Shown here: positions 1,036 to 59,281 of the stretch, in pieces
Numbering within the stretch: position 1 is the first letter of the stretch
Layout of the letters: each line of letters opens with the position of its first letter
Source of the DNA: Lingula anatina
Lineage: Eukaryota; Animalia; Brachiopoda
Assembly: GCA_051362555.1 (NCBI GenBank)
Contig: CM120644.1
Coordinates: forward strand, 25,566,534 to 25,630,533
DNA: 64,000 nt
Direction of reading: 5' to 3'
Made by a program: the position numbers and the translations under genes
The notes under the pieces: generated by a model
The model's database searches: none
What the model saw: the letters and a program-made list of their open reading frames with translations, nothing else
Told to the model about the DNA's origin: nothing

Positions 1036-1280
1036 TTCTGTTGGCGCTGTTAATACCTGCCCTGTCCTCCATCTTAACTCAACATACATACCAACACCTA
1101 TCCTGTCCTCCATCTTAACTCAACATATATACCAACACCTACCCTGTCCTCCATCTGAACTCAACACTTATACCAACACCTATCCTGTCCTCCATCTTAA
1201 CTCAACATATATACCAACACCTACCCTGTCCTCCATCTTAACTCAACATATATACCAACACCTACCCTGTCCTCCATCTT
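1036..1280. repeat. 41-bp tandem repeat (about 6 copies) containing the ELP2 exon 16 end and donor
   Basis: Unit cctaccctgtcctccatcttaactcaacatatataccaaca. Confidence 0.85.
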
Positions 1281-4200
1281 GTTGTCTATACACAGACCAT
1301 GTCCTGTCTCTAGATACAGTGAGTATAAACATACGTACTAATACCTACCCTGTCCTCCATCTTGTTGTCTGTACACAGACCATGTCCTGTCTCTAGATAC
1401 AGTGAGTAGAAACATATGTACTAATACCTACCCTGTCCTCCATCTTGTTGTCTGTACACAGACCATGTCCTGTCTCTAGATACAGTGAGTAGAAACATAT
1501 GTACTAATACCTACCCTGTCCTCCATCTTGTTGTCTGTACACAGACCATGTCCTGTCTCTAGATACAGTGAGTAGAAACATATGTACTAATACCTACCCT
1601 GTCCTCCATCTTGTTGTCTATACACAGACCATGTCCTGTCTCTAGATACAGTCAGTAGAAACATATGTAACTAGAGGATCAGAGAGGCGATACCGCCTCC
1701 GAATATTGTACCACCAGCTGGAGTAAGCGCATTCGCATGGAACCCCCCCCCAAAACAAAAAAGGGACACTATCACCAACTCTTGTGCTTGACAAGCTCTA
1801 TAAAATGCAATCAAAAAGAGTTCTCAAAATATGCAAAAAATATAACTAAAAATGGTACAATCAAGCAGATTTTCGAATTGACCTGCATTTTCCTACCATT
1901 GATCACTCGTGATTCTCTAGACAAAAAGCCTATTGGTTTTCCTTGAAATGTGTTGTCAGTGGTGCATATATGCTGACAAAAGAGAAAACCTAGGGGCAAC
2001 ACCGAGCACATCTCTCCTAGTTTTGAAGATATGAGGGGCAAGAAAATATACAAAGCTCAGTTCATGGTGAAAAAGTAGGTCAAAGGTCAATTTCAATATC
2101 ATTGTATATAAATTTCTATTCAAGTTCAATAGTAACCATGGGCATTTCTTTGCCAATTTTGCAGATTTAAAAGCCAGAAAAAAATGCAAAAAGCAGTTCA
2201 TCATAAAAAGTAGGTCAAAGGTCAATTTCAAGGTCACAGTAAAATTACCAGTATAAAACTTCCTATTCAACTTCAATAGTAACTATGGACCTATCTCTGC
2301 CAGTTTTGAAGATAAAAGGGAACGGACATTTGCAAAGTTCAGTTAATGGTGAAAAGTAGGTCAAAGGTCAATTTTAAGGTCATAGTAAATTGCCTCTAAT
2401 GACTTTCTATTCAAATTCAATAGTAACCATGGGCGTAGCTTTGCCAGTTTTGAAAGTATAAGCATTAAAAAAGTTGCAAAGTTCAGTTTATGGTGTAAAG
2501 TAGGTCAAAGGTCAATTTCAAGGTCACAGTAAGATTACCAGTATAAGACTTCCTATATTCAACTTCAACAGTAACTATGGACCTATCTCTGCCAGTTTTG
2601 GAGATAAAAGGGAACCAAATTTGAAAGTTCATTTCATGATGAAAAGTAGGTCAAAGGTCAATTTCAAGGTCACACTTAGATTGCCTGGATATGACTTCCT
2701 ATTCAAGTTCAATAGTAAGTATGGACCTATCTCAGCCAGTTTTGGTGATAAAAGGGAACGGAAATTTGCAAAGTTCAGTTAATGGTGAAAAGTAGGTCAA
2801 AGGTCAATTTTAAGGTCATAGTAAATTGCCTCTAAAGACTTTCTATTCAAATTCAATAGTAACTATGGACGTATCTTTGCCAGTTTTGAAAGTATAAGCA
2901 TTAAAAAAGTTGCAAAGTTCAGTTAATGGTGAAAAGTAGGTCAAAGGTCAATTTAAAGGTCACAGTTAGATTGCCAGTATATGACTTCCTATTCAAGTTC
3001 AATAGTAACTATGGGCATTTCTTTGCCAGTTTGGAGATATAAGGGACTAAACGTTGCAAAGTCTTATGTTTTATTTTCCCGAAGTTCAAAATTTGTTATC
3101 CATTACCGTATTGCACATTTTGCTTTCACCACCACAATGTACTTTTTGATACAGCATAACTCGAAAACCGTATGGAATACAAAAAAACGGAGACCACCCC
3201 CAGTGTTGGGCTTTACATGCTCTACAAAATGCAAACAAGAATGGGTCTCTAGCATTAACGGTTCCCGAATTAGAGACAGTTTTCAGTTTCTTTATATTAT
3301 GGCCGCTACTCCTGGGAAAATGCAGCGGTTGACCCCAAATTCACAGAGATGAAAGATGACCCGAAGGGTAGCACCTTCCAATAATATTATAGGTTAGGTC
3401 TGTGTAGTTTCTGAATATCAGCGCAAATAATTTTTTTTTTGAAAAAAATTTCGTTTTTTTGAAAATTTTGGCTCGTTTGACCTTGAAATAAAGGTCAAAG
3501 GTCAAATCCAAGGGCATATTTGAAATCTCCACATATGACTTTTGGATAGCCGTCTGTAGAAATTTTTCCCATAATTCCTTCCGTAGGGTAGATAATTAGC
3601 ATTTAATTTTGCCATTTTTGGACAAGGGTGTATTGCAATGAGTGCCACACCTAGACCCCAGCACCGACAAAGCCCAAATTTTACATGGAACGAGTTGAGA
3701 TTATAGGTGACCTAAATCCAAGAGATGGGTATTGAGGCCCTTACTGTCTAGGAGGAGAAGCGGTAACGGTGAGATGGCGGCGGAGCCAGAGGAGCCGGCG
3801 GAGCCGCAGGAGCCGGCGGAGCCGGTGGAACATGCGGGTCGGGACTAAAACCATGTGTACCGCCAGCGCCTACGCTGGTGGTACAATAATACCGACCCTG
3901 TCCTCCATCTTCTTGTCTATACACAGACCATGTCCTGTCTCTAGATACAGTGAGTAGAAACATATGTACTAACACCTACCCTGTCCTCCATCTTGTTGTC
4001 TGTACAGAGACCATGTCCTGTCTCTAGATACAGTGAGTAGAAACATATGTACTAATACCTACCCTGTCCTCTATTTTGTTGTCTATACACAGACCATGTC
4101 CTGTCTCTAGATACAGTGAGTAGAAACATATGTACTAATACCTACCCTGTCCTCCATCTTGTTGTCTGTACAGAGACCATGTCCTGTCTCTAGATACAGT

Positions 4201-4286
4201 GAGTAGAAACATATGTACTAATACCTACCCTGTCCTCCATCTTGTTGTCTGTACAGAGACCATGTCCTGTCTCTAGATACAGTGAG
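1258..4286. repeat. 83-bp tandem repeat (about 10 copies) of the ELP2 exon 16 3' end and donor, split by a HINE insertion
   Basis: Minus strand encodes [18 protein letters not shown] followed by gtaggt; copies at 1258-1668 and 3889-4286. Confidence 0.92.
1669..3890 (-). mobile_element. Non-autonomous Helentron/HINE (DINE-1-like) element with internal tandem core repeats
   Basis: SubTIRs attgtaccaccagc / gctggtggtacaat, end hairpin gtaccgccagcg-cgctggtggtac, opposite-end stem-loop gaggcgataccgcctc next to CTAG, about 140-bp core repeats, no TSD; other copies in window. Confidence 0.8.
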
Positions 4287-4412
4287 CAGATACTGTCCAG
4301 AGTTGGAGAAAGCCATCTGGGTGACAGTCAGGGAGTGGGACTGCAGACTACACAGCTGCTTCCAGGTGGAAATCTGCCATAAAATCACAGCTGCATGCTC
4401 GGCTTTGGCTGC
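4229..4412 (-). CDS. ELP2: ELP2 exon 16 ([12 protein letters not shown]...[11 protein letters not shown]...[17 protein letters not shown])
   Basis: ttccag / gtaggt. Confidence 0.9.
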
Positions 4413-7400
4413 CTGGAAAATTTAGGTTATAAACTTACAATCTGCCAAAAAATCACAGCTGCATGCTCGGCTTGGGCTGACTGGAAAATTGAAGTTATAA
4501 ACTTACAATCTGCCATAAAATCACAGCTGCATGCATCGTCTTTGGCTGCCTGGAAAAAAGTGGTTTTAAACTTAGAATCTGACATGAAATTATGGCTGTA
4601 TGGTTATTTCAGCTGCTTGGAAAGTTGTGGTTGTCATCTTAGGGACCATTCCCACAGATATTTGGATTGATATATCTCCCTGGGGTGTCTCACTAAATTG
4701 TGATCAACTTAATGGACTTAAATGTCTGTCACTGAAAGCTGTTAGGGGGTATTTATCTTTACTTCCTAGATAATTTGGTAGGCAGACATTTAAGCTGGCA
4801 AATTGAAAGCAATTTAGTGAGACTCCCCAGGGAGTCAGACTGATCCAGATGGCATGGGAACCCAGTCTTAGAATCTGCCATAAAATCTAAGCTACATGTT
4901 TGTTTAAGCTGCCTGGAAAGTTGTGGTTGTTGTCTTAAAAACTGCCATAAAAGCACAGATGTTCTGCAGAATGTGGGGTACTAATATCTCAAACATAGGC
5001 AAATTGTAGTTCATATTTTACTTAAAATGAAGGGAAGAACAATAATTATAACAGATCCCATACATTGTCATGTACAATACCACGCTGATCACAATACCTT
5101 ACAACTTGATGCCAGAATTGTCCCCTGAGGATTACAAGCCAATGCAAAGATTTCATAGCCATGACCATATAACTTGTGTGTCTCTGGCCACAGGGTGTTC
5201 TGTAGCAGGTTCTCCTCTGTGGGGGGCTCTGAAGTGAAACAAACCCTTGTACTGGATATGATAGCTATTATATATGTTAGACTACAGTGTACTGGATATG
5301 ATAGCTATAGCCACTGCTAACATAGACTACAGTGTACTGGCTTTGACAGCTACTATAGCCACTGCTAACATAGACTACAGTATTTTCACTTTCAACTTAC
5401 AGATATATGAAGAAGTTGTAGTTACTGTCCAAAGCATTGCAATTGTCACAGTTTTGCAGAGGTACTTACTGTCCATAAGAAAGGGTTTGAAGTAGACCTC
5501 AGCATACTGTTATCAGCTGTCACTGTACACAGGTACTTACTGTCCATAAGAAAGGGTTTGAAGTAGACCTCAGCAGACTGTTATCAGCTGTCACTGTACA
5601 CAGGTACTTACTGTTCAAAAGAAAGGGTTTGAAGTAGACCTCAGCAGACTGTTATCAGCTGTCACTGTACACATGTACTTACTGTCCATAAGAAAGGGTT
5701 TGAAGTAGACCTCAGCAGACTGTTATCAGCTGTCACTGTACACAGGTACTTACTGTTCATAAGAAAGGGTTTGAAGTAGACCTCAGCAGACTGTTATCAG
5801 CTGTCACTGTACACAGGTACTTACTGTTCATAAGAAAGGGTTTGAAGTAGACCTCAGCAGACTGTTATCAGCTGTCACTGTACACAGGTACTTACTGTTC
5901 ATAAGAAAGGGTTTGAAGTAGACCTCAGCAGACTGTTATCAGCTGTCACTGTACACAGGTACTTACTGTCCATAAGAAAGGGTTTGAAGTAGACCTCAGC
6001 AGACTGTTATCAGCTGTCACTGTACACAGGTACTTACTGTCCATAAGAAAGGGTTTGAAGTAGACCTCAGCAGACTGTTATCAGCTGTCACTGTACACAG
6101 GTACTTACTGTCCATAAGAAAGGGTTTGAAGTAGACCTCAGCAGACTGTTATCAGCTGTCACTGTACACAGGTACTTACTGTCCATAAGAAAGGGTTTGA
6201 AGTAGACCTCAGCAGACTGTTATCAGCTGTCACTGTACACAGGTACTTACTGTCCATAAGAAAGGGTTTGAAGTAGACCTCAGCAGACTGTTATCAGCTG
6301 TCACTGTACACAGGTACTTACTGTCCATAAGAAAGGGTTTGAAGTAGACCTCAGCAGACTGTTATCAGCTGTCACTGTACACAGGTACTTACTGTCCATA
6401 AGAAAGGGTTTGAAGTAGACCTCAGCAGACTGTTATCAGCTGTCACTGTACACAGGTACTTACTGTCCATAAGAAAGGGTTTGAAGTAGACCTCAGCAGA
6501 CTGTTATCAGCTGTCACTGTACACAGGTACTTACTGTCCATAAGAAAGGGTTTGAAGTAGACCTCAGCAGACTGTTATCAGCTGTCACTGTACACAGGTA
6601 CTTACTGTCCATAAGAAAGGGTTTGAAGTAGACCTCAGCAGACTGTTATCAGCTGTCACTGTACACAGGTACTTACTGTCCATAAGAAAGGGTTTGAAGT
6701 AGACCTCAGCAGACTGTTATCAGCTGTCACTGTACACAGGTACTTACTGTCCATAAGAAAGGGTTTGAAGTAGACCTCAGCAGACTGTTATCAGCTGTCA
6801 CTGTACACAGGTACTTACTGTCCATAAGAAAGGGTTTGAAGTAGACCTCAGCAGACTGTTATCAGCTGTCACTGTACACAGGTACTTACTGTCCATAAGA
6901 AAGGGTTTGAAGTAGACCTCAGCAGACTGTTATCAGCTGTCACTGTACACAGGTACTTACTGTCCATAAGAAAGGGTTTGAAGTAGACCTCAGCAGACTG
7001 TTATCAGCTGTCACTGTACACAGGTACTTACTGTCCATAAGAAAGGGTTTGAAGTAGACCTCAGCAGACTGTTATCAGCTGTCACTGTACACAGGTACTT
7101 ACTGTCCATAAGAAAGGGTTTGAAGTAGACCTCAGCAGACTGTTATCAGCTGTCACTGTACACAGGTACTTACTGTCCATAAGAAAGGGTTTGAAGTAGA
7201 CCTCAGCAGACTGTTATCAGCTGTCACTGTACACAGGTACTTACTGTCCATAAGAAAGGGTTTGAAGTAGACCTCAGCAGACTGTTATCAGCTGTCACTG
7301 TACACAGGTACTTACTGTCCATAAGAAAGGGTTTGAAGTAGACCTCAGCAGACTGTTATCAGCTGTCACTGTACACAGGTACTTACTGTCCATAAGAAAG

Positions 7401-9668
7401 GGTTTGAAGTAGACCTCAGCAGACTGTTATCAGCTGTCACTGTACACAGGTACTTACTGTCCATAAGAAAGGGTTTGAAGTAGACCTCAGCAGACTGTTA
7501 TCAGCTGTCACTGTACACAGGTACTTACTGTCCATAAGAAAGGGTTTGAAGTAGACCTCAGCAGACTGTTATCAGCTGTCACTGTACACAGGTACTTACT
7601 GTCCATAAGAAAGGGTTTGAAGTAGACCTCAGCAGACTGTTATCAGCTGTCACTGTACACAGGTACTTACTGTCCATAAGAAAGGGTTTGAAGTAGACCT
7701 CAGCAGACTGTTATCAGCTGTCACTGTACACAGGTACTTACTGTCCATAAGAAAGGGTTTGAAGTAGACCTCAGCAGACTGTTATCAGCTGTCACTGTAC
7801 ACAGGTACTTACTGTCCATAAGAAAGGGTTTGAAGTAGACCTCAGCAGACTGTTATCAGCTGTCACTGTACACAGGTACTTACTGTCCATAAGAAAGGGT
7901 TTGAAGTAGACCTCAGCAGACTGTTATCAGCTGTCACTGTACACAGGTACTTACTGTCCATAAGAAAGGGTTTGAAGTAGACCTCAGCAGACTGTTATCA
8001 GCTGTCACTGTACACAGGTACTTACTGTCCATAAGAAAGGGTTTGAAGTAGACCTCAGCAGACTGTTATCAGCTGTCACTGTACACAGGTACTTACTGTC
8101 CATAAGAAAGGGTTTGAAGTAGACCTCAGCAGACTGTTATCAGCTGTCACTGTACACAGGTACTTACTGTCCATAAGAAAGGGTTTGAAGTAGACCTCAG
8201 CAGACTGTTATCAGCTGTCACTGTACACAGGTACTTACTGTCCATAAGAAAGGGTTTGAAGTAGACCTCAGCAGACTGTTATCAGCTGTCACTGTACACA
8301 GGTACTTACTGTCCATAAGAAAGGGTTTGAAGTAGACCTCAGCAGACTGTTATCAGCTGTCACTGTACACAGGTACTTACTGTCCATAAGAAAGGGTTTG
8401 AAGTAGACCTCAGCAGACTGTTATCAGCTGTCACTGTACACAGGTACTTACTGTCCATAAGAAAGGGTTTGAAGTAGACCTCAGCAGACTGTTATCAGCT
8501 GTCACTGTACACAGGTACTTACTGTCCATAAGAAAGGGTTTGAAGTAGACCTCAGCAGACTGTTATCAGCTGTCACTGTACACATGTACTTACTGTTCAT
8601 AAGAAAGGGTTTGAAGTAGACCTCAGCAGACTGTTATCAGCTGTCACTGTACACATGTACTTACTGTTCATAAGAAAGGGTTTGAAGTAGACCTCAGCAT
8701 ACTGTTATCAGCTGTCACTGTACACAGGTAATTACTGTTCATAAGAAAGGGTTTGAAGTAGACCTCAGCATACTGTTATCAGCTGTCACTGTACACAGGT
8801 AATTACTGTTCATAAGAAAGGGTTTGAAGTAGACCTCAGCATACTGTTATCAGCTGTCACTGTACACAGGTACTTACTGTTCATAAGAAAGGGTTTGAAG
8901 TAGACCTCAGCATACTGTTATCAGCTGTCACTGTACACAGGTACTTACTGTTCATAAGAAAGGGTTTGAAGTAGACCTCAGCATACTGTTCATTGGCATG
9001 TGGCTGTAGCTGGCTGTCTTCATACAAGCTCTGTGTATTCACCTCATAGACAGCTTTGTTGGACAGACCTAGAGCAGGCACACTAGCTCCCTCTGGTATC
9101 ACACTGGTCTCCTGAAAACACGGGAAAACCTGTTATAATCAGATTTTATATAATATTCAACCACTATCTCTACTGATATCTGAGGCAACTTCTGAAAACA
9201 ATCCCCATGTTTAGTCACATAGCTCAAAAATATAGCTGCAGAAACATTCTACTGGGGTATCACTGACTAACAATGATCCACAAACCTTATCTTTAAGCCC
9301 TTGAATGTAATTCCTTCCTGTTATTTTCCCCAAATTCTCTATAAAGTTTCTTGGAGCCTGAAACACCCTGGTCACTTTCTCATCTGCACCTGAGGCAAAT
9401 TTGAACTTGTTAACCATGGCCAGGCATTGGAGGTCGTAACCATGGACTTGAGGGCGAGCCACCTCATGCCACGTCACCTGTAAAATGTAACAGTTAAGAT
9501 ATGTGCAGTAAATAACAACTGATCTTGACCTTCTTCATCTCAAATGTGCACATAACATAAAGCACATTGCTGAGCTTGTATATGACTTGGTGAAGCCTTT
9601 GATGCACATAAATCATGACAACAATCGTCTCTGTGCGTAAAAACTCACTGACCTCTCTCTTTCCCAAT

Positions 9669-9713
<45 letters not shown>

Positions 9714-9985
9714 GTGTCTGTACATAAAAACTCACTGACCTCTCCCTTTCCCTGGACCCAAGGTGCAAACAGTGTCTGTACATAAAAACTCATTGACCTC
9801 TCTATTTCCCTGGACCCAAGGTGCAAACAGTGTCTGTACATAAAAACTCACTGACCTCTCTCTTTCCCTGGACCCAAGGTGCAAACAGTGTCTGTACATA
9901 AAAACTCACTGACCTCTCTCTTTCCCTGGACCCAAGGTGCAAACAGTGTCTGTACATAAAAACTCACTGACCTCTCTATTTCCCA

Positions 9986-10038
<53 letters not shown>

Positions 10039-13000
10039 GTGTCTGTACATAAAAACTCACTGACCTCTGTCTTTCCCTGGACCCAAGGTGCAAACAGTGT
10101 CTGTACATAAAAACTCACTGACCTCTCTCTTTCCCTGGACCCAAGGTGCAAACAGTGTCTGTACATAAAAACTCACTGACCTCTCTATTTCCCTGGACCC
10201 AAGGTGCAAACAGGCGTGTGGTCTGGTCAGTACTGGTGGTCAGCAAGAAATGACCATCCTCTGGATCCCAAGCTATGTCCTGGACACCATCAAAGTGCCC
10301 ACTGGGTGTGACCCAAGGTTGCCAGCTGTCACCTGTCTTCTAATTTATCAGGAGTATAACAATATTATAAGAATACTTATCATCAATTAAAAAAAATTTT
10401 GTGAAAGTCAAAAAATAGATTTCTACATACAGATTTGTCTCATAAACAACTAGTTTACAATAAAATTAATGTTCTGCATATACTAAGAACTAAGTTCAAC
10501 TGCCTTCCCTGTACCAGAGATGTGGTCTGTCCTGGTAACCATGGTACCTTCCCCTTCCCTGTACCACGGATGTGGTCTGTCCTGGTAACCATGGTATCTA
10601 CCCCTTCCCTGTACCACAGATGTGGCCTGTCCTGGTAACCATGGTATCTACCCCTTCCCTGTACCACAGATGTGGTCTGTCCTGGTAACCATGGTACCTA
10701 CCCCTTCCCTGTACCACAGATGTGGCCTGTCCTGGTAACCATGGTATCTACCCCTTCCCTGTACCACAGATGTGGCCTGTCCTGGTAACCATGGTATCTA
10801 CCCCTTCCCTGTACCACAGATGTGGTCTGTCCTGGTAACCATGGTACCTACCCCTTCCCTGTACCACAGATGTAGTCTGCCCTGGTAACCATGGTACCTA
10901 CCCCTTCCCTGTACCAGAGATGTGGTCTGCCCTGGTAACCATGGTACCTACCCCTTCCCTGTACCACAGATGTAGTCTGCCCTGGTAACCATGGTACCTA
11001 CCCCTTCCCTGTACCAGAGATGTAGTCTGCCCTGGTAACCATGGTACCTACCCCTTCCCTGTACTAGAGATGTGGTCTGCCCTGGTAACCATGGTGTACC
11101 TACCCCTTCCCTGTACTAGAGATGTAGTCTGCCCTGGTAACCATGGTACCTACCCCTTCCCTGTACTAGAGATGTGGTCTGCCCTGGTAACCATGGTGTA
11201 CCTACCCCTTCCCTGTACTAGAGATGTGGTCTGCCCTGGTAACCATGGTGTACCTACCCCTTCCCTGTACTAGAGATGTAGTCTACACTGGTAACCATGG
11301 TACCTACCCCTTCCCTGTACTAGAGATGTAGTCTGCCCTGGTAACCATGGTACCTACCCCTTCCCTGTACTAGAGATGTGGTCTGCCCTGGTAACCATGG
11401 TGTACCTACCCCTTCCCTGTACTAGAGATGTGGTCTGCCCTGGTAACCATGGTGTACCTACCCCTTCCCTGTACTAGAGATGTAGTCTACACTGGTAACC
11501 ATGGTACCTACCCCTTCCCTGTACTAGAGATGTAGTCTACACTGGTAACCATGGTACCTACCCCTTCCCTGTACTAGAGATGTAGTCTACACTGGTAACC
11601 ATGGTACCTACCCCTTCCCTGTACCAGAGATGTGGTCTGTCCTGGTAACCATGGTACCTACCCCTTCCCTGTACCAGAGATGTGGTCTGTCCTGGTAACC
11701 ATGGTACCTACCCCTTCCCTGTACCAGAGATGTGGTCTGTCCTGGTAACCATGGTACCTACCCCTTCCCTGTACCACAGATGTGGTCTGTCCTGGTAACC
11801 ATGGTACCTACCCCTTCCCTGTACCACAGATGTGGTCTGTCCTGGTAACCATGGTACCTACCCCTTCCCTGTACCAGAGATGTGGTCTGTCCTGGTAACC
11901 ATGGTACCTACCCCTTCCCTGTACCACAGATGTGGTCTGTCCTGGTAACCATGGTACCTACCCCTTCCCTGTACCAGAGATGTGGTCTGTCCTGGTAACC
12001 ATGGTTCCTACCCCTTCCCTGTACCAGAGATGTGGTCTGTCCTGGTAACCATGGTACCTACCCCTTCCCTGTACCACAGATGTGGTCTGTCCTGGTAACC
12101 ATGGTACCTACCCCTTCCCTGTACCAGAGATGTGGTCTGTCCTGGTAACCATGGTACCTACCCCTTCCCTGTACCAGAGATGCAGCGCCCCCTGGTAACC
12201 GTGGGCTAGAATCGTGTCTCCAGAGGGGCTGAACTGGCAGCCATAGAAGCCCAGAGTATTGCCTCCCACTCCTCCAACACGGACCTGCAGAAAGTAAACT
12301 TCACCATGTTTACGTCACAAGACCAGAGAACAGATTGGGATGATTGTGAACATAAGTGTTATACCTACTATGAAAACATTTCTAAACATTACCAGAATAT
12401 CTACAGAATTTGATATTCCAAATTCCTTTTATACACTTTTAAGTTGACATCACAAAGGTACATCACCTCCATCCGAAGTATCACACACTCACCTCTTCTA
12501 CCCAAATTCCACTGTTAAGATCACATGTCCACAGTATTATACACTCACCTCTTCTATCCAAATTCCACTGTTAAGATCACATGTCCACAGTATCACACAC
12601 TCACCTGTTCTATCCAAATTCCACTGTTAAGAGCACATGTCCACAGTATTATACACTGACCTCTTCTATCCAAATTCCACTGTTAAGATCACATGTCCAC
12701 AGTATTATACACTCACCTGTTCTACCCAAATTCCACTGTTAAGATCACATGTCCACAGTATTATACACTGACCTCTTCTATCCATATTCCACTGTTAAGA
12801 TCACATGTCCACAGTATTATACACTGACCTCTTCTATCCATATTCCACTGTTAAGATCACATGTCCACAGTATTATACACTCACCTGTTCTATCCAAATT
12901 CCACTGTTAAGATCACATGTCCACAGTATTATACACTGACCTGTTCTATCCAAATTCCACTGTTAAGATCGCATGTCCACAGTATTATACACTCACCTGT

Positions 13001-27484: not shown

Positions 27485-27510
27485 CAAATTCAGATTCTAG
27501 GATTTCCCCA

Positions 27511-34241: not shown

Positions 34242-34472
34242 CACTGTTACTGATGGCAAATGTGCATTGATTACAAAATGTGGTCTGCCTAAATTGCACA
34301 ATACTGCACAAAACAAGTCCAGTTGCAATTAAACAAATGAAACGTATGGTCATTCCCAACAAAATTAGTTGCTATAAAAGTGAAATTAATCTCGTTGATA
34401 TATATCTCAACAAATCAGCAATACTTGTAAAGCTTTCGGTTAGCTGCCATGTTGGCGAGTGGCTCTTCTTGG

Positions 34473-35065
34473 CAATAATGTATTGTGTAATTTAGGCACA
34501 GCCAGTCATGTGTGGGAGGCCTGGTTAAGGCTGCTGTGAGGTTTGACTGTTCCATCACCATTATCAAGAATATATGGATCTGTTTATATATAATAATGTA
34601 TTGTGTAATTTAGGCACAGCCAGTCATGTGTGGGAGGCCTGGTTAAGGCTGCTGTGAGGTTTGACTGTTCCATCACCATTATCAAGAATATATGGATCTG
34701 TTTATATATAATAATGTATTGTGTAATTTAGGCACAGCCAGTCATAAGCGGGAGGCCTGGTTAAGGCTGCTGTGAGGTTTGACTGTTCCATCACCATTAT
34801 CAAGAATATATGGATCTGTTTATATATAATAATGTATTGTGTAATTTAGGCACAGCCAGTCATAAGCGGGAGGCCTGGTTAAGGCTGCTGTGAGGTTTGA
34901 CTGTTCCATCACCATTATCAAGAATATATGGATCTGTTTATATATAATAATGTATTGTGTAATTTATGCACAGCCAGTCATAAGTGGGAGGCATGGTTAA
35001 GGCTGCTTTGAGATATGATAGTTCCATCACCATTATCAAGAATATTTGGATCTGTTTATATATAA
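34473..35065. repeat. 119-bp tandem repeat (5 copies)
   Basis: ataatgtattgtgtaatttaggcacagcc...gatctgtttatatata. Confidence 0.93.
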
Positions 35066-35251
35066 TTCACATGGCATCCACTTTTAAATGTGGCGATGGT
35101 AAATTTTTGTAACATTCACAGCTCATTAGGTCATGTTTATGGAGTTGGTTGGATGGTAATCAATATTTCTAGCCTTCAGATTATAATTTTTTTCCATGAC
35201 ACTTAAAAACTTTTATCGACCATAACCTTTCACTAATTCACTGATGAAGAA

Positions 35252-36057
35252 TGATAATGATGTAATACCAGTACAGTGTTCCAGTAGCAGCGTAGTACTT
35301 TATAATGATGTAATACCTGTACATTGTACCAGTAGCAGTGTAGTACTTTATAATGATGTAATACCAGAACATTGTACCAGTAGCAGTGTAGTACTTTATA
35401 ATGATGTAATACCAGTACATTGTACCAGTAGCAGTGTAGTACTTTATAATGATGTAATACCAGTACATTGTACCAGTAGCAGCGTAGTACTTTATAATGA
35501 TGTAATACCAGTACATTGTACCAGTAGCAGCGTAGTACTTTATAATGATGTAATACCAGTACATTGTACCAGTAGCAGCGTAGTACTTTATAATGATGTA
35601 ATACCAGTACATTGTACCAGTAGCAGCGTAGTACTTTATAATGATGTAGTACCAGTACATTGTACCAGTAGCAGCGTAGTACTTTATAATGATGTAATAC
35701 CAGTACATTGTACCAGTAGCAGCGTAGTACTTTATAATGATGTAATACCAGTACATTGTACCAGTAGCAGCGTAGTACTTTATAATGATGTAGTACCAGT
35801 ACATTGTACCAGTAGCAGCGTAGTACTTTATAATGATGTAATACCAGTACATTGTACCAGTAGCAGCGTAGTACTTTATAATGATGTAATACCAGTACAT
35901 TGTACCAGTAGCAGCGTAGTACTTTATAATGATGTAATACCAGAACATTGTACCAGTAGCAGCGTAGTACTTTATAATGATGTAATACCAGTACATTGTA
36001 CCAGTAGCAGCGTAGTACTTTATAATGATGTAATACCAGAACATTGTACCAGTAGCA
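35252..36057. repeat. 51-bp minisatellite (about 16 copies) ending 20 bp before the CPVL first-coding-exon acceptor
   Basis: Unit tataatgatgtaataccagtacattgtaccagtagcagcgtagtactt, stop-free in two frames. Confidence 0.93.
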
Positions 36058-36078
36058 AGGGAATTTTTTTTTCTTCAG

Positions 36079-36268
36079 ATGAGATCCACATTCTTTGTCC
36101 TGTTGCTGATGGCAATGATAGGACTACTTGGACAGTTTACGGAGGGTAGACGTGGTCCTTTGGCTGCCATATTTGATAAGAAGATTCCTCCCATGAACAA
36201 CACTGGGGTGGATCCTGGGCAACCTCTCTTCCTGACCCCCCTCATAGAGAAAGGCCAGATAGCACAAG
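36079..36268 (+). CDS. CPVL: CPVL coding exon 1 ([11 protein letters not shown]...[17 protein letters not shown])
   Basis: ttcttcag|ATG, hydrophobic signal peptide, gtaggt donor. Confidence 0.9.
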
Positions 36269-45200: not shown

Positions 45201-48200
45201 CTAGTCTTGATATCTCTGATATGTTGTGTTCTAGGTGGGATGTTAAAGAGATAGGTAGGTAATCAGCTAGTCTTGATATCTCTGATATGTTGTGTTCTAG
45301 GTGGGATGTTAAAGAGATAGGTAGATAATCAGCTAGTCCTGATATTTCTGATATGTTGTGTTCTAGGTAGGATGTTAAAGAGATAGGTAGGTAATCAGCT
45401 AGTCTTGATATCTCTGATATGTTGTGTTCTAGGTGGGATGTTAAAGAGATAGGTAGATAATCAACTAGTCTTGATATCTCTGATATGTTGTGTTCTAGGT
45501 GGGATGTTAAAGAGATAGGTAGGTAATCAACTAGTCTTGATATTTCTGATATGTTGTGTTCTAGGTGGGATGTTAAAGAGATAGGTAGGTAATCAGCTAG
45601 TCTTGATATCTCTGATATGTTGTGTTCTAGGTGGGATGTTAAAGAGATAGGTAGATAATCAGCTAGTCCTGATATCTCTGATATGCTGTGTTCTAGGTGG
45701 GATGTTAAAGAGATAGGTAGATAATCAACTAGTCTTGATATTTCTGATATGTTGTGTTCTAGGTGGGATGTTAAAGAGATAGGTAGATAATCAACTAGTC
45801 TTGATATTTCTGATATGTTGTGTTCTAGGTGGGATGTTAAAGAGATAGGTAGATAATCAACTAGTCTTGATATTTCTGATATGTTGTGTTCTAGGTGGGA
45901 TGTTAAAGAGATAGGTAGATAATCAACTAGTCTTGATATCTCTGATATGTTGTGTTCTAGGTGGGATGTTAAAGAGATAGGTAGGTAATCAACTAGTCTT
46001 GATATTTCTGATATGTTGTGTTCTAGGTGGGATGTTAAAGAGATAGGTAGGTAATCAGCTAGTCTTGATATCTCTGATATGTTGTGTTCTAGGTGGGATG
46101 TTAAAGAGATAGGTAGATAATCAACTAGTCTTGATATCTCTGATATGTTGTGTTCTAGGTGGGATGTTAAAGAGATAGGTAGGTAATCAGCTAGTCTTGA
46201 TATCTCTGATATGTTGTGTTCTAGGTGGGATGTTAAAGAGATAGGTAGATAATCAGCTAGTCCTGATATCTCTGATATGCTGTGTTCTAGGTGGGATGTT
46301 AAAGAGATAGGTAGATAATCAGCTAGTCCTGATATTTCTGATATGTTGTGAGAGAACAGTTTCATTAGCTCTGTATGTATAAATTCAAATTACTGTTTTT
46401 CTTTTTATCAAGAGCTTGTAAAATATGTGGGTATTACCTCCAATATTTCTGTGACTGTCAGTCACCATCATCAGGGAGTAAATGACTAGGGTCATTTCAC
46501 CTGGAATGAAAATCCAGGTCAATTGCCCCTAATTGGAGGTAATACCCACATATTTTACAAGCTCTTGATAAAAAGAAAAACAGTAATTTGAACTGATATG
46601 TTGTGTTCTAGGTAGGATGTTAAAGAGATAGGTAGGTAATCAGCTAGTCTTGATATCTCTGATATGTTGTGTTCTAGGTGGGATGTTAAAGAGATAGGTA
46701 GATAATCAGCTAGTCCTGATATTTCTGATATGTTGTGTTCTAGGTAGGATGTTAAAGAGATAGGTAGGTAATCAGCTAGTCTTGATATCTCTGATATGTT
46801 GTGTTCTAGGTGGGATGTTAAAGAGATAGGTAGGTAATCAGCTAGTCTTGATATCTCTGATATGTTGTGTTCTAGGTGGGATGTTAAAGAGATAGGTAGA
46901 TAATCAGCTAGTCCTGATATTTCTGATATGTTGTGTTCTAGGTAGGATGTTAAAGAGATAGGTAGATAATCAACTAGTCTTGATATCTCTGATATGTTGT
47001 GTTCTAGGTGGGATGTTAAAGAGATAGGTAGGTAATCAACTAGTCTTGATATTTCTGATATGTTGTGTTCTAGGTGGGATGTTAAAGAGATAGGTAGGTA
47101 ATCAGCTAGTCTTGATATCTCTGATATGTTGTGTTCTAGGTGGGATGTTAAAGAGATAGGTAGATAATCAGCTAGTCCTGATATCTCTGATATGCTGTGT
47201 TCTAGGTGGGATGTTAAAGAGATAGGTAGATAATCAGCTAGTCCTGATATTTCTGATATGTTGTGAGAGAACAGTTTCATTAGCTCTGTATGTATAAATT
47301 CAAATTACTGTTTTTCTTTTTATCAAGAGCTTGTAAAATATGTGGGTATTACCTCCAATATTTCTGTGACTGTCAGTCACCATCATCAGGGAGTAAATGA
47401 CTAGGGTCATTTCACCTGGAATGAAAATCCAGGTCAATTGCCCCTAATTGGAGGTAATACCCACATATTTTACAAGCTCTTGATAAAAAGAAAAACAGTA
47501 ATTTGAACTGATATGTTGTGTTCTAGGTAGGATGTTAAAGAGATAGGTAGGTAATCAGCTAGTCTTGATATCTCTGATATGTTGTGTTCTAGGTGGGATG
47601 TTAAAGAGATAGGTAGGTAATCAGCTAGTCCTGATATTTCTGATATGTTGTGTTCTAGGTAGGATGTTAAAGAGATAGGTAGGTAATCAGCTAGTCTTGA
47701 TATCTCTGATATGTTGTGTTCTAGGTGGGATGTTAAAGAGATAGGTAGGTAATCAGCTAGTCTTGATATCTCTGATATGTTGTGTTCTAGGTGGGATGTT
47801 AAAGAGATAGGTAGATAATCAGCTAGTCCTGATATTTCTGATATGTTGTGTTCTAGGTAGGATGTTAAAGAGATAGGTAGGTAATCAGCTAGTCTTGATA
47901 TCTCTGATATGTTGTGTTCTAGGTGGGATGTTAAAGAGATAGGTAGATAATCAACTAGTCTTGATATCTCTGATATGTTGTGTTCTAGGTGGGATGTTAA
48001 AGAGATAGGTAGGTAATCAACTAGTCTTGATATTTCTGATATGTTGTGTTCTAGGTGGGATGTTAAAGAGATAGGTAGGTAATCAGCTAGTCTTGATATC
48101 TCTGATATGTTGTGTTCTAGGTAGGATGTTAAAGAGATAGGTAGGTAATCAGCTAGTCTTGATATCTCTGATATGTTGTGTTCTAGGTGGGATGTTAAAG

Positions 48201-51200
48201 AGATGGGTAGATAATCAGCTAGTCCTGATATCTCTGATATGTTGTGTTCTAGGTGGGATGTTAAAGAGATAGGTAGATAATCAGCTAGTCCTGATATCTC
48301 TGATATGCTGTGTTCTAGGTGGGATGTTAAAGAGATAGGTAGATAATCAGCTAGTCCTGATATTTCTGATATGTTGTGTTCTAGGTAGGATGTTAAAGAG
48401 ATAGGTAGGTAATCAGCTAGTCTTGATATCTCTGATATGTTGTGTTCTAGGTGGGATGTTAAAGAGATGGGTAGATAATCAGCTAGTCCTGATATTTCTG
48501 ATATGTTGTGTTCTAGGTAGGATGTTGAAGAGATAGGTAGGTAATCAGCTAGTCTTGATATCTCTGATATGTTGTGTTCTAGGTGGGATGTTAAAGAGAT
48601 AGGTAGATAATCAACTAGTCTTGATATTTCTGATATGTTGTGTTCTAGGTAGGATGTTAAAGAGATAGGTAGGTAATCAGCTAGTCTTGATATCTCTGAT
48701 ATGTTGTGTTCTAGGTGGGATGTTAAAGAGATAGGTAGATAATCAGCTAGTCCTGATATCTCTGATATGTTGTGTTCTAGGTGGGATGTTAAAGAGATAG
48801 GTAGATAATCAGCTAGTCCTGATATTTCTGATATGCTGTGTTCTAGGTGGGGTGTTAGAGAGATAGGTAGATAATCAACTAGTCTTGATATTTCTGATAT
48901 GTTGTGTTCTAGGTAGGATGTTAAAGAGATAGGTAGGTAATCAGCTAGTCTTGATATCTCTGATATGTTGTGTTCTAGGTGGGATGTTAAAGAGATAGGT
49001 AGATAATCAGCTAGTCCTGATATCTCTGATATGCTGTGTTCTAGGTGGGGACTGGGTTCAGTTTTACTGATGATGACAAGGGCTATGCCACCAATGAAGA
49101 GGATGTAGCTGATAACTTGTACAGGTAAGTTTTCCCATTTGTTTTATGTTCTAATTTAAACTTGCCTGCTCAGTTTTAGATGTGATCTAACATTTTATGA
49201 GACACAAGGTGTAGTCTCCTACTGAACATATTGGTAAATTTCTTTCAGTGCACTTATCCAGTTTTTCACAGTTTTCCCAGAATTCCAGAAAAATGACTTT
49301 TATGCAACGGGAGAGGTGAGTTTTTGAATCAGAAACTCGCAGTGAGTCCTGAAGTCATGCTTGATTTTTGTAAAGTCAGCACCATTCTACCATTTTTTGT
49401 AGAGTGGTATCTAGGGTTTAGAAAGTCTTGTATGATGTCAACAATGAAATAAGAAATTAGGGTATAGGAAGTGTAGGGGATTTCTTCCATTTTCCAGCTT
49501 TGGCTTGTCCCATCCCAGCTTTCATGGAAATGGTGTTTTTTCTGTTGAAATGTTTGTTGAGAGAGGTGTTTTCAGTGGGTCTGTTCTTTCAGTCGTATGC
49601 AGGGAAATATGTCCCAGCTATCACCTACAAGATCCACATGATGAATCCCACAGCAAAGACCAAGATCTACCTCAGAGGGATGGCCATTGGAGACGGACTC
49701 TGTGAGCCAGAAACTGTATGTATAAATTTGAAGTTTCCATTTCATAAATTTACATATATGTTTATGTATGTTAATTTTTAAGCAATATTATATTCTTCTC
49801 AGGCAAATTGCATTGTTGTTCCAGATGCTGCCATCTCTAGGAAGTTTCATGTTCAATACTGGCCAGGCAGATGAAAGCCAGCGCAAATACATAGATGGAG
49901 CCACTGCCCAAGCCGTTCAGTATATTAAACAGCAACAGTGGATCAAGGCCTTTAATGTATTGGCATATTATGCAATTTTTAATTTTCTAATGGTTTATAA
50001 ATAGCTAGAACTTTTGTATATACTTATATGTATGAATGCATATTATTAGCAATTTTAGTGTTAAGCAAGATGTTTATATTTATTAAAACCTGATTTGGGT
50101 TAACTTTAATTATTACAGTCGTTACTACATGTGTCCTTACTATTCCAATATTCTTCCAGGTGTTTGATATCCTTCTAAATGGAGACACAATTCCATATCC
50201 ATCTTACTTCACCAATATCACAGGGTCCACATTTTACTACAACTACATGCTGATGAGGGTATGTTACACAATTCCATATCCATCTTACTTCACCAATATC
50301 ACAGGGTCCACATTTTACTACAACTACATGCTGATGAGGGTATGTTACACAATTCCATATCCATCTTACTTCACCAATATCACAGGGTCCACATTTTACT
50401 ACAACTACATGCTGATGAGGGTATGTTACACAATTCCATATCCATCTTACTTCACCAATATCACAGGGTCCACATTTTACTACAACTACATGCTGATGAG
50501 GGTATGTTACACAATTCCATATCCATCTTACTTCACCAATATCACAGGGTCCACATTTTACTACAACTACATGCTGATGAGGGTATGTTACACAATTCCA
50601 TATCCATCTTACTTCACCAATATCACAGGGTCCACATTTTACTACAACTACATGCTGATGAGGGTTTGAAACTAAGTTTATATTTTAAAAAATATACACT
50701 CAATCTGTGTTTGACAACAGTTATTTCATATTTGCCTTCCTATTTATTTAAATATTGATTGATATATTAAACAATCTACTCTTCATGCATGGGGAATGCT
50801 ATGTTTAAGATGAGTTAGAAGAAAGTTCCTTCCTTGTTAATGAAATATTATGAACTTCTGTGTGTCCTAGGAGAGCTTTAGAGTCTTAGGGGGTGTTCCC
50901 ATAAACCCAATGTACTAGCTGGATTGCCCTTACTCTGCTGGGATTCTCACTTAATTGCATTCCGTGTAAGCAGCTTAAGTGTCTGCATGCCCACTCCGGC
51001 TGCTAGACAATTTAGCTGCTTAAACTGAAAGCACTTTACTGAGGTACCCTGCTGAGTAAGATCAATCCAGCTAGTACATTGGGTTTATGGGAATTCATTT
51101 AACACAGTCTTATTGTCATTTTACTTTAGAAACTACAAGCATATTATGGGATGTGATTTAGGTATGCATTCTTTTTATCAAACATTTCTAAACTGCTGAC

Positions 51201-54200
51201 CACATTCTAGGAGCCGGAATCGTTTGGTTATTACAACAAGTACCTGGCCAGATCAGATGTGAGGAAGGCCATCCACGTGGGAAACCTGACCTTCCATGAT
51301 GGCAGCAAAGTGGAGCAGTTTCTGCTGCAGGATGTCATGAAGTCTGTGAAACCTTGGATGACAGAGATTTTCAACACAAGAAAGGTGGAAAACATGTTTT
51401 CTCTCAATACACAGTTGTGGAACGTCGATCTGTGCTCTTCCAGCTTTGTTGAATAAACAAGTTGAATACCAGACTTTTCATTTATGTGTAATGATTAATA
51501 TTTGTGCTTTATTGACATAAATATTATATTCTGAAATCATTCCATGGTTAAGTATTTAAGTATTTCGGCTTTGACAGAGAGTAGGATGTGTTGATGTAGT
51601 AGCCAGTTTCTGTTGCATGTAGATGATGTTCTGTCCTGTTCTTGTGACATTGTAGGTATTGATCTACAGTGGTCAGTTGGATGTGATAATTGCAGCAGTG
51701 ATGACAGAGTCTTTCCTAAGTACTGTAGTTATGTTCTGTTCTTGTGACATTGTAGGTATTGATCTACAGTGGTCAGTTGGATGTGATAATTGCAGCAGTG
51801 ATGACAGAGTCTTTCCTAAGTACTGTAGTTATGTCCTGTTCTTGTGACATTGTAGGTATTGATCTACAGTGGTCAGTTGGATGTGATAATTGCAGCAGTG
51901 ATGACAGAGTCTTTCCTAAGTACTGTAGTTATGTCCTGTTCTTGTGATATTGTAGGTATTGATCTACAGTGGTCAGTTGGATGTGATAATTGCAGCAGTG
52001 ATGACAGAGTCTTTCCTAAGTACTGTAGTTATGTTCTGTTCTTGTGATATTGTAGGTATTGATCTACAGTGGTCAGTTGGATGTGATAATTGCAGCAGTG
52101 ATGACAGAGTCTTTCCTAAGTACTGTAGTTATGTCCTGTTCTTGTGATATTGTAGGTATTGATCTACAGTGGTCAGTAGGATGTGATAATTGCAGCAGTG
52201 ATGACAGAGTCTTTCCTAAGTACTGTAGTTATGTTCTGTTCTTGTGACATTGTAGGTATTGATCTACAGTGGTCAGTTGGATGTGATAATTGCAGCAGTG
52301 ATGACAGAGTCTTTCCTAAGTACTGTAGTTATGTCCTGTTCTTGTGACATTGTAGGTATTGATCTACAGTGGTCAGTTGGATGTGATAATTGCAGCAGTG
52401 ATGACAGAGTCTTTCCTAAGTACTGTAGTTATGTCCTGTTCTTGTGATATTGAAGGTATTGATCTACAGTGGTCAGTTGGATGTGATAATTGCAGCAGTG
52501 ATGACAGAGTCTTTCCTAAGTACTGTAGTTATGTCCTGTTCTTGTGACATTGTAGGTATTGATCTACAGTGGTCAGTTGGATGTGATAATTGCAGCAGTG
52601 ATGACAGAGTCTTTCCTAAGTACTGTAGTTATGTTCTGTTCTTGTGACATTGTAGGTATTGATCTACAGTGGTCAGTTGGATGTGATAATTGCAGCAGTG
52701 ATGACAGAGTCTTTCCTAAGTACTGTAGTTATGTCCTGTTCTTGTGACATTGTAGGTATTGATCTACAGTGGTCAGTTGGATGTGATAATTGCAGCAGTG
52801 ATGACAGAGTCTTTCCTAAGTACTGTAGTTATGTCCTGTTCTTGTGATATTGTAGGTATTGATCTACAGTGGTCAGTTGGATGTGATAATTGCAGCAGTG
52901 ATGACAGAGTCTTTCCTAAGTACTGTAGTTATGTTCTGTTCTTGTGATATTGTAGGTATTGATCTACAGTGGTCAGTTGGATGTGATAATTGCAGCAGTG
53001 ATGACAGAGTCTTTCCTAAGTACTGTAGTTATGTCCTGTTCTTGTGATATTGTAGGTATTGATCTACAGTGGTCAGTAGGATGTGATAATTGCAGCAGTG
53101 ATGACAGAGTCTTTCCTAAGTACTGTAGTTATGTTCTGTTCTTGTGACATTGTAGGTATTGATCTACAGTGGTCAGTTGGATGTGATAATTGCAGCAGTG
53201 ATGACAGAGTCTTTCCTAAGTACTGTAGTTATGTCCTGTTCTTGTGACATTGTAGGTATTGATCTACAGTGGTCAGTTGGATGTGATAATTGCAGCAGTG
53301 ATGACAGAGTCTTTCCTAAGTACTGTAGTTATGTCCTGTTCTTGTGACATTGTAGGTATTGATCTACAGTGGTCAGTTGGATGTGATAATTGCAGCAGTG
53401 ATGACAGAGTCTTTCCTAAGTACTGTAGTTATGTCCTGTTCTTGTGATATTGTAGGTATTGATCTACAGTGGTCAGTAGGATGTGATAATTGCAGCAGTG
53501 ATGACAGAGTCTTTCCTAAGTACTGTAGTTATGTTCTGTTCTTGTGACATTGTAGGTATTGATCTACAGTGGTCAGTTGGATGTGATAATTGCAGCAGTG
53601 ATGACAGAGTCTTTCCTAAGTACTGTAGTTATGTCCTGTTCTTGTGATATTGTAGGTATTGATCTACAGTGGTCAGTAGGATGTGATAATTGCAGCAGTG
53701 ATGACAGAGTCTTTCCTAAGTACTGTAGTTATGTTCTGTTCTTGTGACATTGTAGGTATTGATCTACAGTGGTCAGTTGGATGTGATAATTGCAGCAGTG
53801 ATGACAGAGTCTTTCCTAAGTACTGTAGTTATGTCCTGTTCTTGTGACATTGTAGGTATTGATCTACAGTGGTCAGTTGGATGTGATAATTGCAGCAGTG
53901 ATGACAGAGTCTTTCCTAAGTACTGTAGTTATGTCCTGTTCTTGTGACATTGTAGGTATTGATCTACAGTGGTCAGTTGGATGTGATAATTGCAGCAGTG
54001 ATGACAGAGTCTTTCCTAAGTACTGTAGTTATGTCCTGTTCTTGTGATATTGTAGGTATTGATCTACAGTGGTCAGTTGGATGTGATAATTGCAGCAGTG
54101 ATGACAGAGTCTTTCCTAAGTACTGTAGTTATGTTCTGTTCTTGTGATATTGTAGGTATTGATCTACAGTGGTCAGTTGGATGTGATAATTGCAGCAGTG

Positions 54201-55135
54201 ATGACAGAGTCTTTCCTAAGTACTGTACCTTGGCAGTATCAAGATGAGTATCTGCGTGCTGACCGCTGGATCTGGAAGGTGAACAAAGCAGACTCTGAGG
54301 TGGCTGGATATGTAAGAAGAGTACATGACTTTTATCAGGTAGGGAGTGGAGCCAAGAGATCTTTCTTTTCTCAAGCACCCTCCTTAATTTTACCTCAGTT
54401 GATTCAGAATACCTCTGTCTCAGTAATAAACCTAAAATTATCATTTTCACTGCATTGTGCTATAATAAGTTGACTTGTAAATAAGATATGTTGTATCTAA
54501 AACCTAACATGGTAGATAACCTTGTTCTCACATAGAAATTCAGCATACAAGGTGGTGGTCATATTCTACCCTATGATCAGCTTTATAATGGACATGTTGT
54601 CATATAGAATATAAAGATATAATTTGATATATTCTAGGTTATAGTACGAGGTGGTGGTCATATTCTACCCTATGATCAGCTATATAATGGAAATGTTGTC
54701 ATATAGAATATAAAGATATAATTTGATATATTCTAGGTTATAGTACGAGGTGGTGGTCATATTCTACCCTATGATCAGCTATATAATGGAAATGTTGTCA
54801 TATAGAATATAAAGATATAATTTGATATATTCTAGGTTATAGTACGAGGTGGTGGTCATATTCTACCCTATGATCAGCTATATAATGGACATGTTGTCAT
54901 ATAGAATATAAAGATATAATTTGATATATTCTAGGTTATAGTACGAGGTGGTGGTCATATTCTACCCTATGATCAGCTATATAATGGAAATGTTGTCATA
55001 TAGAATATAAAGATATAATTTGATATATTCTAGGTTATAGTACGAGGTGGTGGTCATATTCTACCCTATGATCAGCCAGCTAGAAGTTTAGACATGATGG
55101 ACAGGTTCATCAACAACAAACCATTCAACAAGTAA
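36079..55135 (+). CDS. CPVL: Serine carboxypeptidase CPVL-like (peptidase S10), 12 coding exons, 480 aa, signal peptide
   Basis: Spliced ORF of 1443 nt with [50 protein letters not shown], catalytic GESYAG, GQLDVII and [11 protein letters not shown] motifs. Confidence 0.95.
36224..37361. repeat. 60-61-bp tandem repeat (about 19 copies) of the CPVL coding exon 1 3' end and gtaggt donor
   Basis: Unit ctctcttcctgacatctctcatagagaaaggacagatagcacaaggtaggtataggacaaa. Confidence 0.93.
37451..37569 (+). CDS. CPVL: CPVL coding exon 2 (RAASAVGP...FFWFFPAQ)
   Basis: ctttag / gtgtgt. Confidence 0.92.
37585..38595. repeat. 19-bp degenerate minisatellite starting just after the CPVL exon 2 donor
   Basis: Unit acactgtcaca(c/t)c(c/t)aacac. 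Confidence 0.9.
38900..39014 (+). CDS. CPVL: CPVL coding exon 3 ([30 protein letters not shown]...)
   Basis: ttccag / gtgagt. Confidence 0.92.
39955..40013 (+). CDS. CPVL: CPVL coding exon 4 ([19 protein letters not shown])
   Basis: ttgtag / gtaagt. Confidence 0.92.
40056..49050. repeat. 66-bp tandem array (roughly 120 copies) carrying the CPVL exon 5 acceptor, with four hairpin interruptions
   Basis: Unit gatatgttgtgttctag|gtgggatgttaaagagataggtagataatcaactagtcttgatatttct; the last copy runs into GTG GGG ACT GGG (VGTG). Confidence 0.95.
43894..44102. mobile_element. 209-bp foldback/MITE-like hairpin with 61-bp arms; further copies at 44809-45017, 46384-46592, 47299-47507
   Basis: ttcaaattactg...attacctccaat and its exact reverse complement. 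Confidence 0.75.
49045..49124 (+). CDS. CPVL: CPVL coding exon 5 ([26 protein letters not shown])
   Basis: ttctag / gtaagt. Confidence 0.92.
49249..49315 (+). CDS. CPVL: CPVL coding exon 6 ([22 protein letters not shown])
   Basis: tttcag / gtgagt. Confidence 0.92.
49593..49715 (+). CDS. CPVL: CPVL coding exon 7 ([10 protein letters not shown]...[13 protein letters not shown]; catalytic Ser)
   Basis: tttcag / gtatgt. Confidence 0.92.
49825..49956 (+). CDS. CPVL: CPVL coding exon 8 ([13 protein letters not shown]...WIKAFN)
   Basis: ttccag / gtattg. Confidence 0.88.
50160..50258 (+). CDS. CPVL: CPVL coding exon 9 ([33 protein letters not shown])
   Basis: ttccag / first gtatgt donor. Confidence 0.88.
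50186..50665. repeat. 81-bp perfect tandem repeat (6 copies) of the CPVL exon 9 3' part and donor, in frame
   Basis: ORF 50160-50669 repeats [27 protein letters not shown]. Confidence 0.95.
50889..51098. mobile_element. Harbinger-like MITE
   Basis: 31-bp perfect inverted repeat ttcccataaacccaatgtactagctggattg (50896-50926 / 51063-51093), TTA flanks. Confidence 0.7.
51211..51384 (+). CDS. CPVL: CPVL coding exon 10 (EPESFGYY...VRKAIHVGN...[14 protein letters not shown])
   Basis: ttctag / gtggaa. Confidence 0.88.
51632..54228. repeat. 100-bp tandem repeat (26 copies) of the CPVL exon 11 acceptor and first 72 nt
   Basis: Acceptors every 100 bp from 51655 to 54155; each encodes [24 protein letters not shown]. 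Confidence 0.96.
54156..54338 (+). CDS. CPVL: CPVL coding exon 11 ([12 protein letters not shown]...[15 protein letters not shown]; catalytic Asp)
   Basis: last ttgtag acceptor of the 100-bp array / gtaggg. Confidence 0.9.
54550..55077. repeat. 99-bp tandem repeat (5 acceptors plus a partial copy) of the CPVL last-exon acceptor and first 43 nt
   Basis: Exon-start copies at 54638, 54737, 54836, 54935, 55034. Confidence 0.94.
55034..55135 (+). CDS. CPVL: CPVL last coding exon ([33 protein letters not shown]; catalytic His)
   Basis: last ttctag acceptor of the 99-bp array; TAA at 55133-55135. Confidence 0.9.
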   Translation, partial: VIVRGGGHILPYDQPARSLDMMDRFINNKPFNK

Positions 55136-58860: not shown

Positions 58861-58972
58861 CACAAAGAGTAACTATCTAGCTAACAGTGATAGTTATGGG
58901 GTATTAAAGCTGACACCTCTGTGGTCACAGTCTGTTTACACAGGGGATAACATCTTATGCTACAATGAGTAA

Positions 58973-59220: not shown

Positions 59221-59281
59221 AGCAAACATGCATTAATTGTGTGCAAGTAACACAATCCGTCAGTGAAAGAGGGGCGGCTAA

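Follow-up and report, generated by a model that had tools for sequence, protein, structure and literature searches.

Tandem arrays on the splice junctions of two adjacent genes, ELP2 and CPVL, in the brachiopod Lingula anatina

Introduction

Within a 64,000-nucleotide stretch of the Lingula anatina genome (GenBank assembly GCA_051362555.1, contig CM120644.1, positions 25,566,534 to 25,630,533; hereafter the window, numbered from its first letter), the neighbouring genes ELP2 and CPVL carry tandem arrays whose units run across exon-intron boundaries, in the manner of the "mirage" minisatellites known from amphioxus. The locus raises the question of whether such arrays sit on splice junctions more often than chance would place them there, how they could have come to lie there and how splicing proceeds among rows of near-identical sites.

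A genome with arrays on 29% of its junctions would provide thousands of natural experiments. These bear on what duplication breakpoints track (exons, chromatin or splice sites) and on how the spliceosome chooses among up to 120 identical acceptors, a situation in which a first-come scan would pick the copy at one end and exon definition that at the other. On the practical side, junction arrays swell introns, mislead gene predictors and break short-read assemblies. We found no paper quantifying the junction bias of mirage-type repeats; the density of the arrays, together with a measured bias, makes the question of their origin testable genome-wide.

Results

The output of Tandem Repeats Finder (TRF; 65 rows) was merged manually into 24 loci, leaving out microsatellites, 144–146-bp repeats that belong to transposon-like elements and five repeats of only 9–19 bp; none of the repeats left out touches a junction, and all null expectations were computed without them. 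Sixteen of the 24 arrays span a splice junction, and 16 of the 55 junctions (29%) bear an array, namely the donors of ELP2 exons 5, 7, 9, 10, 11, 12, 14 and 16, the acceptors of ELP2 exons 3, 8 and 16, the donors of CPVL exons 1 and 9 and the acceptors of CPVL exons 5, 11 and 12 (exon numbers of junction arrays as in the original prediction, made from the sequence before this analysis). The prediction had counted about 16 junction arrays among roughly 24, and its list of junctions agrees exactly with the merged loci. Both boundary types are affected (10 donor and 6 acceptor arrays), the periods of the junction arrays range from 39 to 100 bp (one array with 122-bp variants), and none of the 24 loci is wholly exonic. 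Arrays make up 55% of the window, with copy numbers of up to about 121. They are also independent of each other, as had been proposed, each unit stemming from its own exon and none recurring among interspersed repeats of at least 60 bp.

As background for the nulls we used the pre-amplification sequence, in which every array is collapsed to one unit. After collapsing, 28,848 of the window's 64,000 bases are left, and the median intron measures 203 bases. Against this background, the number of arrays expected on junctions is 2.4 of 24 for the collapsed whole window, 3.7–4.4 of 23 for the collapsed genes once events confined to exons are discarded and 6.1 of 19 under the most permissive null, and the probability of 16 or more is at most 1.8e-6 over these nulls. 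A GC-matched null gave 6.3–8.0 of 23 (P from 9e-6 to 2e-4). The junction excess is therefore real, 2- to 7-fold over fair nulls, as measured on two genes. The claim that junctions are enriched beyond chance holds locally (16 versus 2.4–8.0 expected, array-collapsed and GC-matched nulls included), while the accompanying statement that junctions take up very little of the DNA overstated the effect, because the median intron before amplification was only about 200 bp long. Two simple explanations could be ruled out on these grounds: a uniform origin followed by survival of the non-exonic events, given the upper bound on P, and GC composition as the sole cause, since the excess persists under GC matching.

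The ELP2 arrays lie on the minus strand. The exon 16 donor array (1055–4290; 83-bp unit with a distal 41-bp sub-array) is split by a 2.2-kb transposon-like insert, and the exon 9 donor array (15180–17054; 10 copies of 39 bp) by a 1.5-kb terminal-inverted-repeat element. Between them lie the exon 16 acceptor array (4371–4590; three decayed copies of 68 bp) and the donor arrays of exon 14 (5460–8990; 50 copies of 71 bp), exon 12 (9653–10213; about nine copies of 58 bp interleaved with AC microsatellites), exon 11 (10503–12182; 33 copies of 50 bp) and exon 10 (12477–15006; 45 copies of 56 bp). Towards the start of the gene follow the exon 8 acceptor array (19271–19601; seven copies of 47 bp), the donor arrays of exon 7 (19601–20054; five copies of a 97-bp unit that derives from the entire exon and has decayed) and exon 5 (20521–21869; 27 copies of 50 bp) and the exon 3 acceptor array (22597–23340; seven units of 93 or 122 bp). 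Intron 7 of ELP2 (19301–20012) consists almost entirely of two abutting arrays, one on the donor and one on the acceptor side, with 72 bases left once they are collapsed.

On the plus strand, CPVL carries a donor array on the exon at 36079–36268 (36220–37361; 19 copies of 61 bp), the exon 5 acceptor array (40055–49049; about 121 copies of 66 bp, with four 243-bp palindromic inserts), the exon 9 donor array (50185–50665; six identical copies of 81 bp, in frame and stop-free), the exon 11 acceptor array (51628–54227; 26 copies of 100 bp) and the acceptor array of the terminal exon 12 (54546–55076; five copies of 99 bp). Three wholly intronic arrays (20190–20259, 35254–36057 and 37587–38564) each lie 18–33 bp off a splice junction.

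The real splice site is part of the first copy in 10 of 10 donor arrays and of the last copy in 6 of 6 acceptor arrays. The invariant polarity noted in the original prediction thus stands as an observation. It fails as evidence for a mechanism: in 15 of the 16 junction arrays the unit covers just part of the exon, so that only the end copy joined to the remaining exon can be coding, and polarity, being a matter of geometry, carries no information on how the arrays arose. We have dropped this argument accordingly. The exception is ELP2 exon 7, which was copied whole; the alignment of its copies has a gap of two bases, their 5' half has diverged and their acceptor is eroded. A pattern search for 97-bp pseudo-exon copies of this exon matched the real exon alone, and we base the point on the alignment.

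Breakpoints do not fall at a constant distance from the splice site; the units contain 5–74 exonic and 5–61 intronic bases. The exonic share of the unit varies from 0.08 to 0.91 and is not distinguishable from uniform (Kolmogorov-Smirnov [KS] test, P = 0.10), and donors and acceptors (10:6) are hit in proportion (P = 0.46). There was no sign of selection for frame-keeping units among the 16 periods, five of which are divisible by three. Giving exon sequence a 5- to 20-fold weight as a source of breakpoints and removing wholly exonic events raises the expectation to 12.8–18.7 of 23. An origin in exons with survival of those events that spill into introns, one of the two candidates named at the outset, was rightly proposed; with this fitted weight it reproduces the observed count. 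At several breakpoints we noted by eye short imperfect matches, clearest in the 56-bp array, which fit slippage or microhomology repair. All but one of the 24 arrays reside in gene bodies (P = 0.002), where the observed/expected ratio (o/e) of CpG is about 0.2, compared to 0.8 at 58000–64000; this low value suggests germline gene-body methylation. Of the seven genic arrays off junctions, six exceed the introns' median GC content (mean quantile 0.66–0.71; P = 0.11 and 0.047).

Searching with probes at up to two mismatches, which strongly decayed copies may escape, we found 368 decoy sites, 363 of them with an intact GT or AG, in line with the claim that the spliceosome faces many near-identical decoys. 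Identity of the decoys to the real exon spans 0.68–1.00 across arrays, a spread that argues for an ongoing duplication process rather than a single burst. In 9 of the 16 arrays decoys are 96–100% identical to the real exon, and identity drops with distance from it at P < 0.05 in 3 of 10 arrays tested. If the nearest decoy were used, 13 of the 16 arrays would bring a premature stop into an exon other than the last, two donor arrays (39 and 81 bp; the latter adding 27 amino acids) would yield a stop-free in-frame extension and the terminal array a shortened C-terminus.

RNA reads, from runs sharing the species label, were examined over one stretch of CPVL (49050–51620), where reads of three runs confirm the five introns 5–9. 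At the 81-bp array of exon 9, 41 reads (15, 25 and 1 by run) join the first donor to exon 10. In the three inner bins of the array, depth is 0–0.1 in run X12 and 0 in run X18, compared to exon depths of 31 and 12, respectively. Taken together, the runs show a depth of 0–3 within the array, compared to 30–37 on the exon in two of them and 12 in the third. With predominant use of a downstream donor, the array would be covered as deeply as the exon. The first donor is therefore mainly used at this array, with minor read-through possible. Over about 670 exon bases (49050–51386), run X18 and the window disagree at 25 places (about 4%), despite the same species label of the run; its source would be a divergent population or a cryptic species, useful in dating the arrays.

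Three arrays contain transposon-like inserts, one of which was amplified four times together with its array. The 2.2-kb element inside the ELP2 exon 16 donor array (1670–3886) has internal 144–146-bp tandem repeats and relatives at 491–931, 17261–18945 and 55691–57292. The element inside the 39-bp donor array (15372–16848) ends in 28-bp perfect terminal inverted repeats (flanking TA counted), and it resembles a non-autonomous Tc1/mariner-type element. The 243-bp insert is largely palindromic; its four copies in the 66-bp array (43860–47508) form a higher-order repeat.

The exon boundaries underlying this analysis were placed with tblastn and GT/AG positions. Coding exons 1–16 of ELP2 (4229–24462, minus strand) encode a stop-free 653-residue model with 52–57% identity to four mollusc ELP2 proteins across 647–650 residues, and the gene runs past the left end of the window; the exon at 5098–5229 matches ELP2 proteins from many animals. 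CPVL (24762–55135, plus strand) has 13 coding exons, and its 483-residue model is without stops and matches the Lingula anatina-labelled protein P0001 at 482 of 483 residues, a single mismatch; the exon at 54156–54338 is identical to it. The earlier exon count for CPVL was incomplete by the first of these exons (24762–24770), which holds only nine coding bases and is followed by an 11.3-kb intron. Of the 27 modelled introns, 26 are GT-AG; ELP2 intron 2 (22648–23613) is GC-AG in the sole stop-free model found.

The two genes are arranged head to head with their ATGs 300 bp apart, and the shared 5' stretch (24337–24770; CpG o/e 0.65 versus 0.2) is likely a bidirectional promoter. A second CpG-richer stretch (o/e 0.5) at 32300–35066 contains a 118-bp array whose unit carries an AG...GT pair; it could be an alternative promoter with a duplicated non-coding exon, which would make it a seventeenth junction array. 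In CPVL intron 1, 330-bp inverted repeats (27512–27841 and 31969–32298) bracket 4.1 kb of AT-rich DNA, and the element as a whole (27512–32298) is probably a large non-autonomous DNA transposon.

Discussion

The anatomy of the arrays, their enrichment on junctions, the intact splice signals of the decoys and the splicing of CPVL mainly from the first donor at one donor array were directly observed. To account for them, we lean, with some reserve, towards mirage minisatellites that are seeded with a bias towards exons, survive where the duplication crosses a junction, grow by unequal exchange and are tolerated thanks to exon definition. Short local duplications would start preferentially in exon sequence of transcribed genes, with exon nucleosomes, methylation and GC-linked recombination as candidate causes of the bias. 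Wholly exonic duplications would be lost while junction-crossing ones survive, and unequal exchange or slippage would then expand the survivors. The spliceosome would take the copy that is joined to the complete exon, guided by exon definition and by 5'-to-3' scanning of donors as in human F7, and mis-spliced RNA may be removed by nonsense-mediated decay, given the early stops in 13 of the 16 nearest-decoy products.

Several points weigh against this account. The sample consists of two genes picked as striking, GC matching alone leaves the enrichment unexplained, and the weight on exon breakpoints is a fitted number with no independent test. The three non-junction arrays within 18–33 bp of a junction and four donor units with just 5–12 intronic bases are what a junction-centred process would give. 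The evidence on splicing covers one donor array of the 16. Even at that array, 22 more reads (5, 15 and 2 by run) were placed at the last donor copy, although these fit any copy because the six copies do not differ over the final 74 bases of the exon. In run X15, moreover, sense depth across the array is 5.7, 1.4, 0.6 and 3.2, compared to 37 on the exon, and falls to 0 in the remaining, unique part of the intron, a weak hint that a few reads, roughly a tenth at most, cross unit joints.

Among other explanations, mutation coupled to splicing could seed duplications at the junctions themselves if, in the germ line, splice sites attract breaks, R-loops or paused polymerases. The excess that survives every null, the GC-matched one included, the arrays on 29% of junctions, the several donor units that reach only a short way into the intron and the near-junction intronic arrays all speak for such a process. 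We nevertheless deem it unlikely, as the register of the units is not fixed (5–61 intronic and 5–74 exonic bases; KS P = 0.10), exon-biased seeding plus survival is enough to yield the count and 8 of 24 arrays are located off known junctions. The bolder version, in which splicing-coupled germline breakage and re-copying at exon edges of expressed genes puts mirage arrays on a large fraction of junctions, these arrays are what chiefly makes introns grow, and some in-frame ones, such as that of CPVL exon 9, already give rise to extended isoforms, appears equally doubtful. Arrays may also have originated evenly, with those on junctions outlasting the others because the copy under selection re-seeds or homogenizes the rest while intronic arrays are deleted or decay. 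The truncated or replaced distal ends of several arrays, the decoys that match the real exon at 96–100% in 9 of the 16 arrays and two non-junction arrays with a mere two to three decayed copies are compatible with this idea. However, a uniform origin with simple survival was rejected, and five genic arrays away from junctions are extensive or well preserved (5–58 copies), showing that intronic arrays do persist; we regard differential persistence as rather unlikely, too.

A function for the arrays, whose decoys might tune expression through alternative splicing and decay or permit stepwise splicing, strikes us as improbable. The retention of GT or AG in 363 of 368 decoys is expected from young or homogenized copies, and the stop-free in-frame extensions afforded by the 39- and 81-bp donor arrays and the weak read-through hint in X15 are offset by periods without bias to multiples of three, by sense depth next to nil inside the array in two of three RNA runs and by mirages in the accessible parts of the literature, which leave splicing unaltered (PMC3087553, PMC3902484). 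That the arrays are artefacts of assembly is barely credible. Certain arrays are 99–100% homogeneous and copy numbers are those of the assembly; yet the copies differ in an ordered fashion and hold transposon inserts. For the 81-bp array, an artefact is largely refuted by contigs of DNA run X2, whose sample and study are separate from the best-matching one: they contain an 86-base piece over the unit-to-unit joint at a depth of 74, compared to about 6 on both flanks, depth not being equal to copy number and short-read contigs collapsing the arrays.

How do the Lingula arrays relate to known systems? We found no literature on junction-spanning repeats in Lingula or other brachiopods and no genome-wide test of junction bias, most subscription papers being outside the search, and the main text of the Lingula genome paper makes no mention of such repeats (PMC4595640; its supplements may bear on this). 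Among metagenome contigs, CPVL homologues gave split matches at 46 of 79 loci, none with an array over the match end; this negative result is weak because short-read assemblies collapse arrays and most of the taxa are distant. The original prediction had stated that no named system matches. This statement did not stand, since mirages (PMC3087553, PMC3902484) and the variable number tandem repeat (VNTR) in intron 7 of human F7 (PMC1557585) do, as far as the accessible text of these papers goes.

In human F7, a 37-bp VNTR provides five to nine identical donors, of which the most upstream alone is used although the others are functional (PMC1557585, accessible text). As there, the first unit in the donor arrays runs across the exon-intron boundary, and the first donor is mainly used at the CPVL exon 9 array. 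F7 is a single donor-side locus, whereas Lingula has donor and acceptor arrays, many per gene. Variable internal tandem repeats at exon-intron boundaries have also been described in human duplicated genes, where, according to the accessible part of the report, they often make new introns or alternative transcripts (PMC2812944). In Lingula, by contrast, the CPVL arrays are likely younger than the introns. Three CPVL homologues from other animals (L071, L074 and L078) break near the same residues as the Lingula protein (67, 106, 165, 190, 213 and 255), indicating that the introns are older than the arrays, and introns retain unique sequence outside the arrays. Intron gain by tandem duplication (the Rogers model, as named in the available text of PMC3087553) is ruled out for CPVL by these shared positions.

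The closest counterpart is found in amphioxus, where mirage minisatellites were described as tandem repeats across exon-intron boundaries of Adh3 and the globin genes BflGb6 and BflGb9, at either the 5' or the 3' boundary, with units of 10–160 bp, splice signals in most copies, regular splicing and divergent edge copies; the mechanism of their origin is called unclear in the accessible text (PMC3087553). Further examples lie in troponin C and PGBD5 (PMC3902484, likewise as accessible). The Lingula arrays share with them the boundary-spanning units, the occurrence at both boundaries, the range of unit sizes and the retention of GT or AG in most copies. They differ in occurring in a brachiopod, in their number (the 55 junctions in the two neighbouring genes bear 16 arrays, with a maximum of about 121 copies), in the 55% of the window that they fill and in an enrichment that is quantified against nulls. 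We conclude that the Lingula arrays are mirage minisatellites, a kind of repeat already known, and that what is worth keeping from this locus is their density and the measured bias towards splice junctions.

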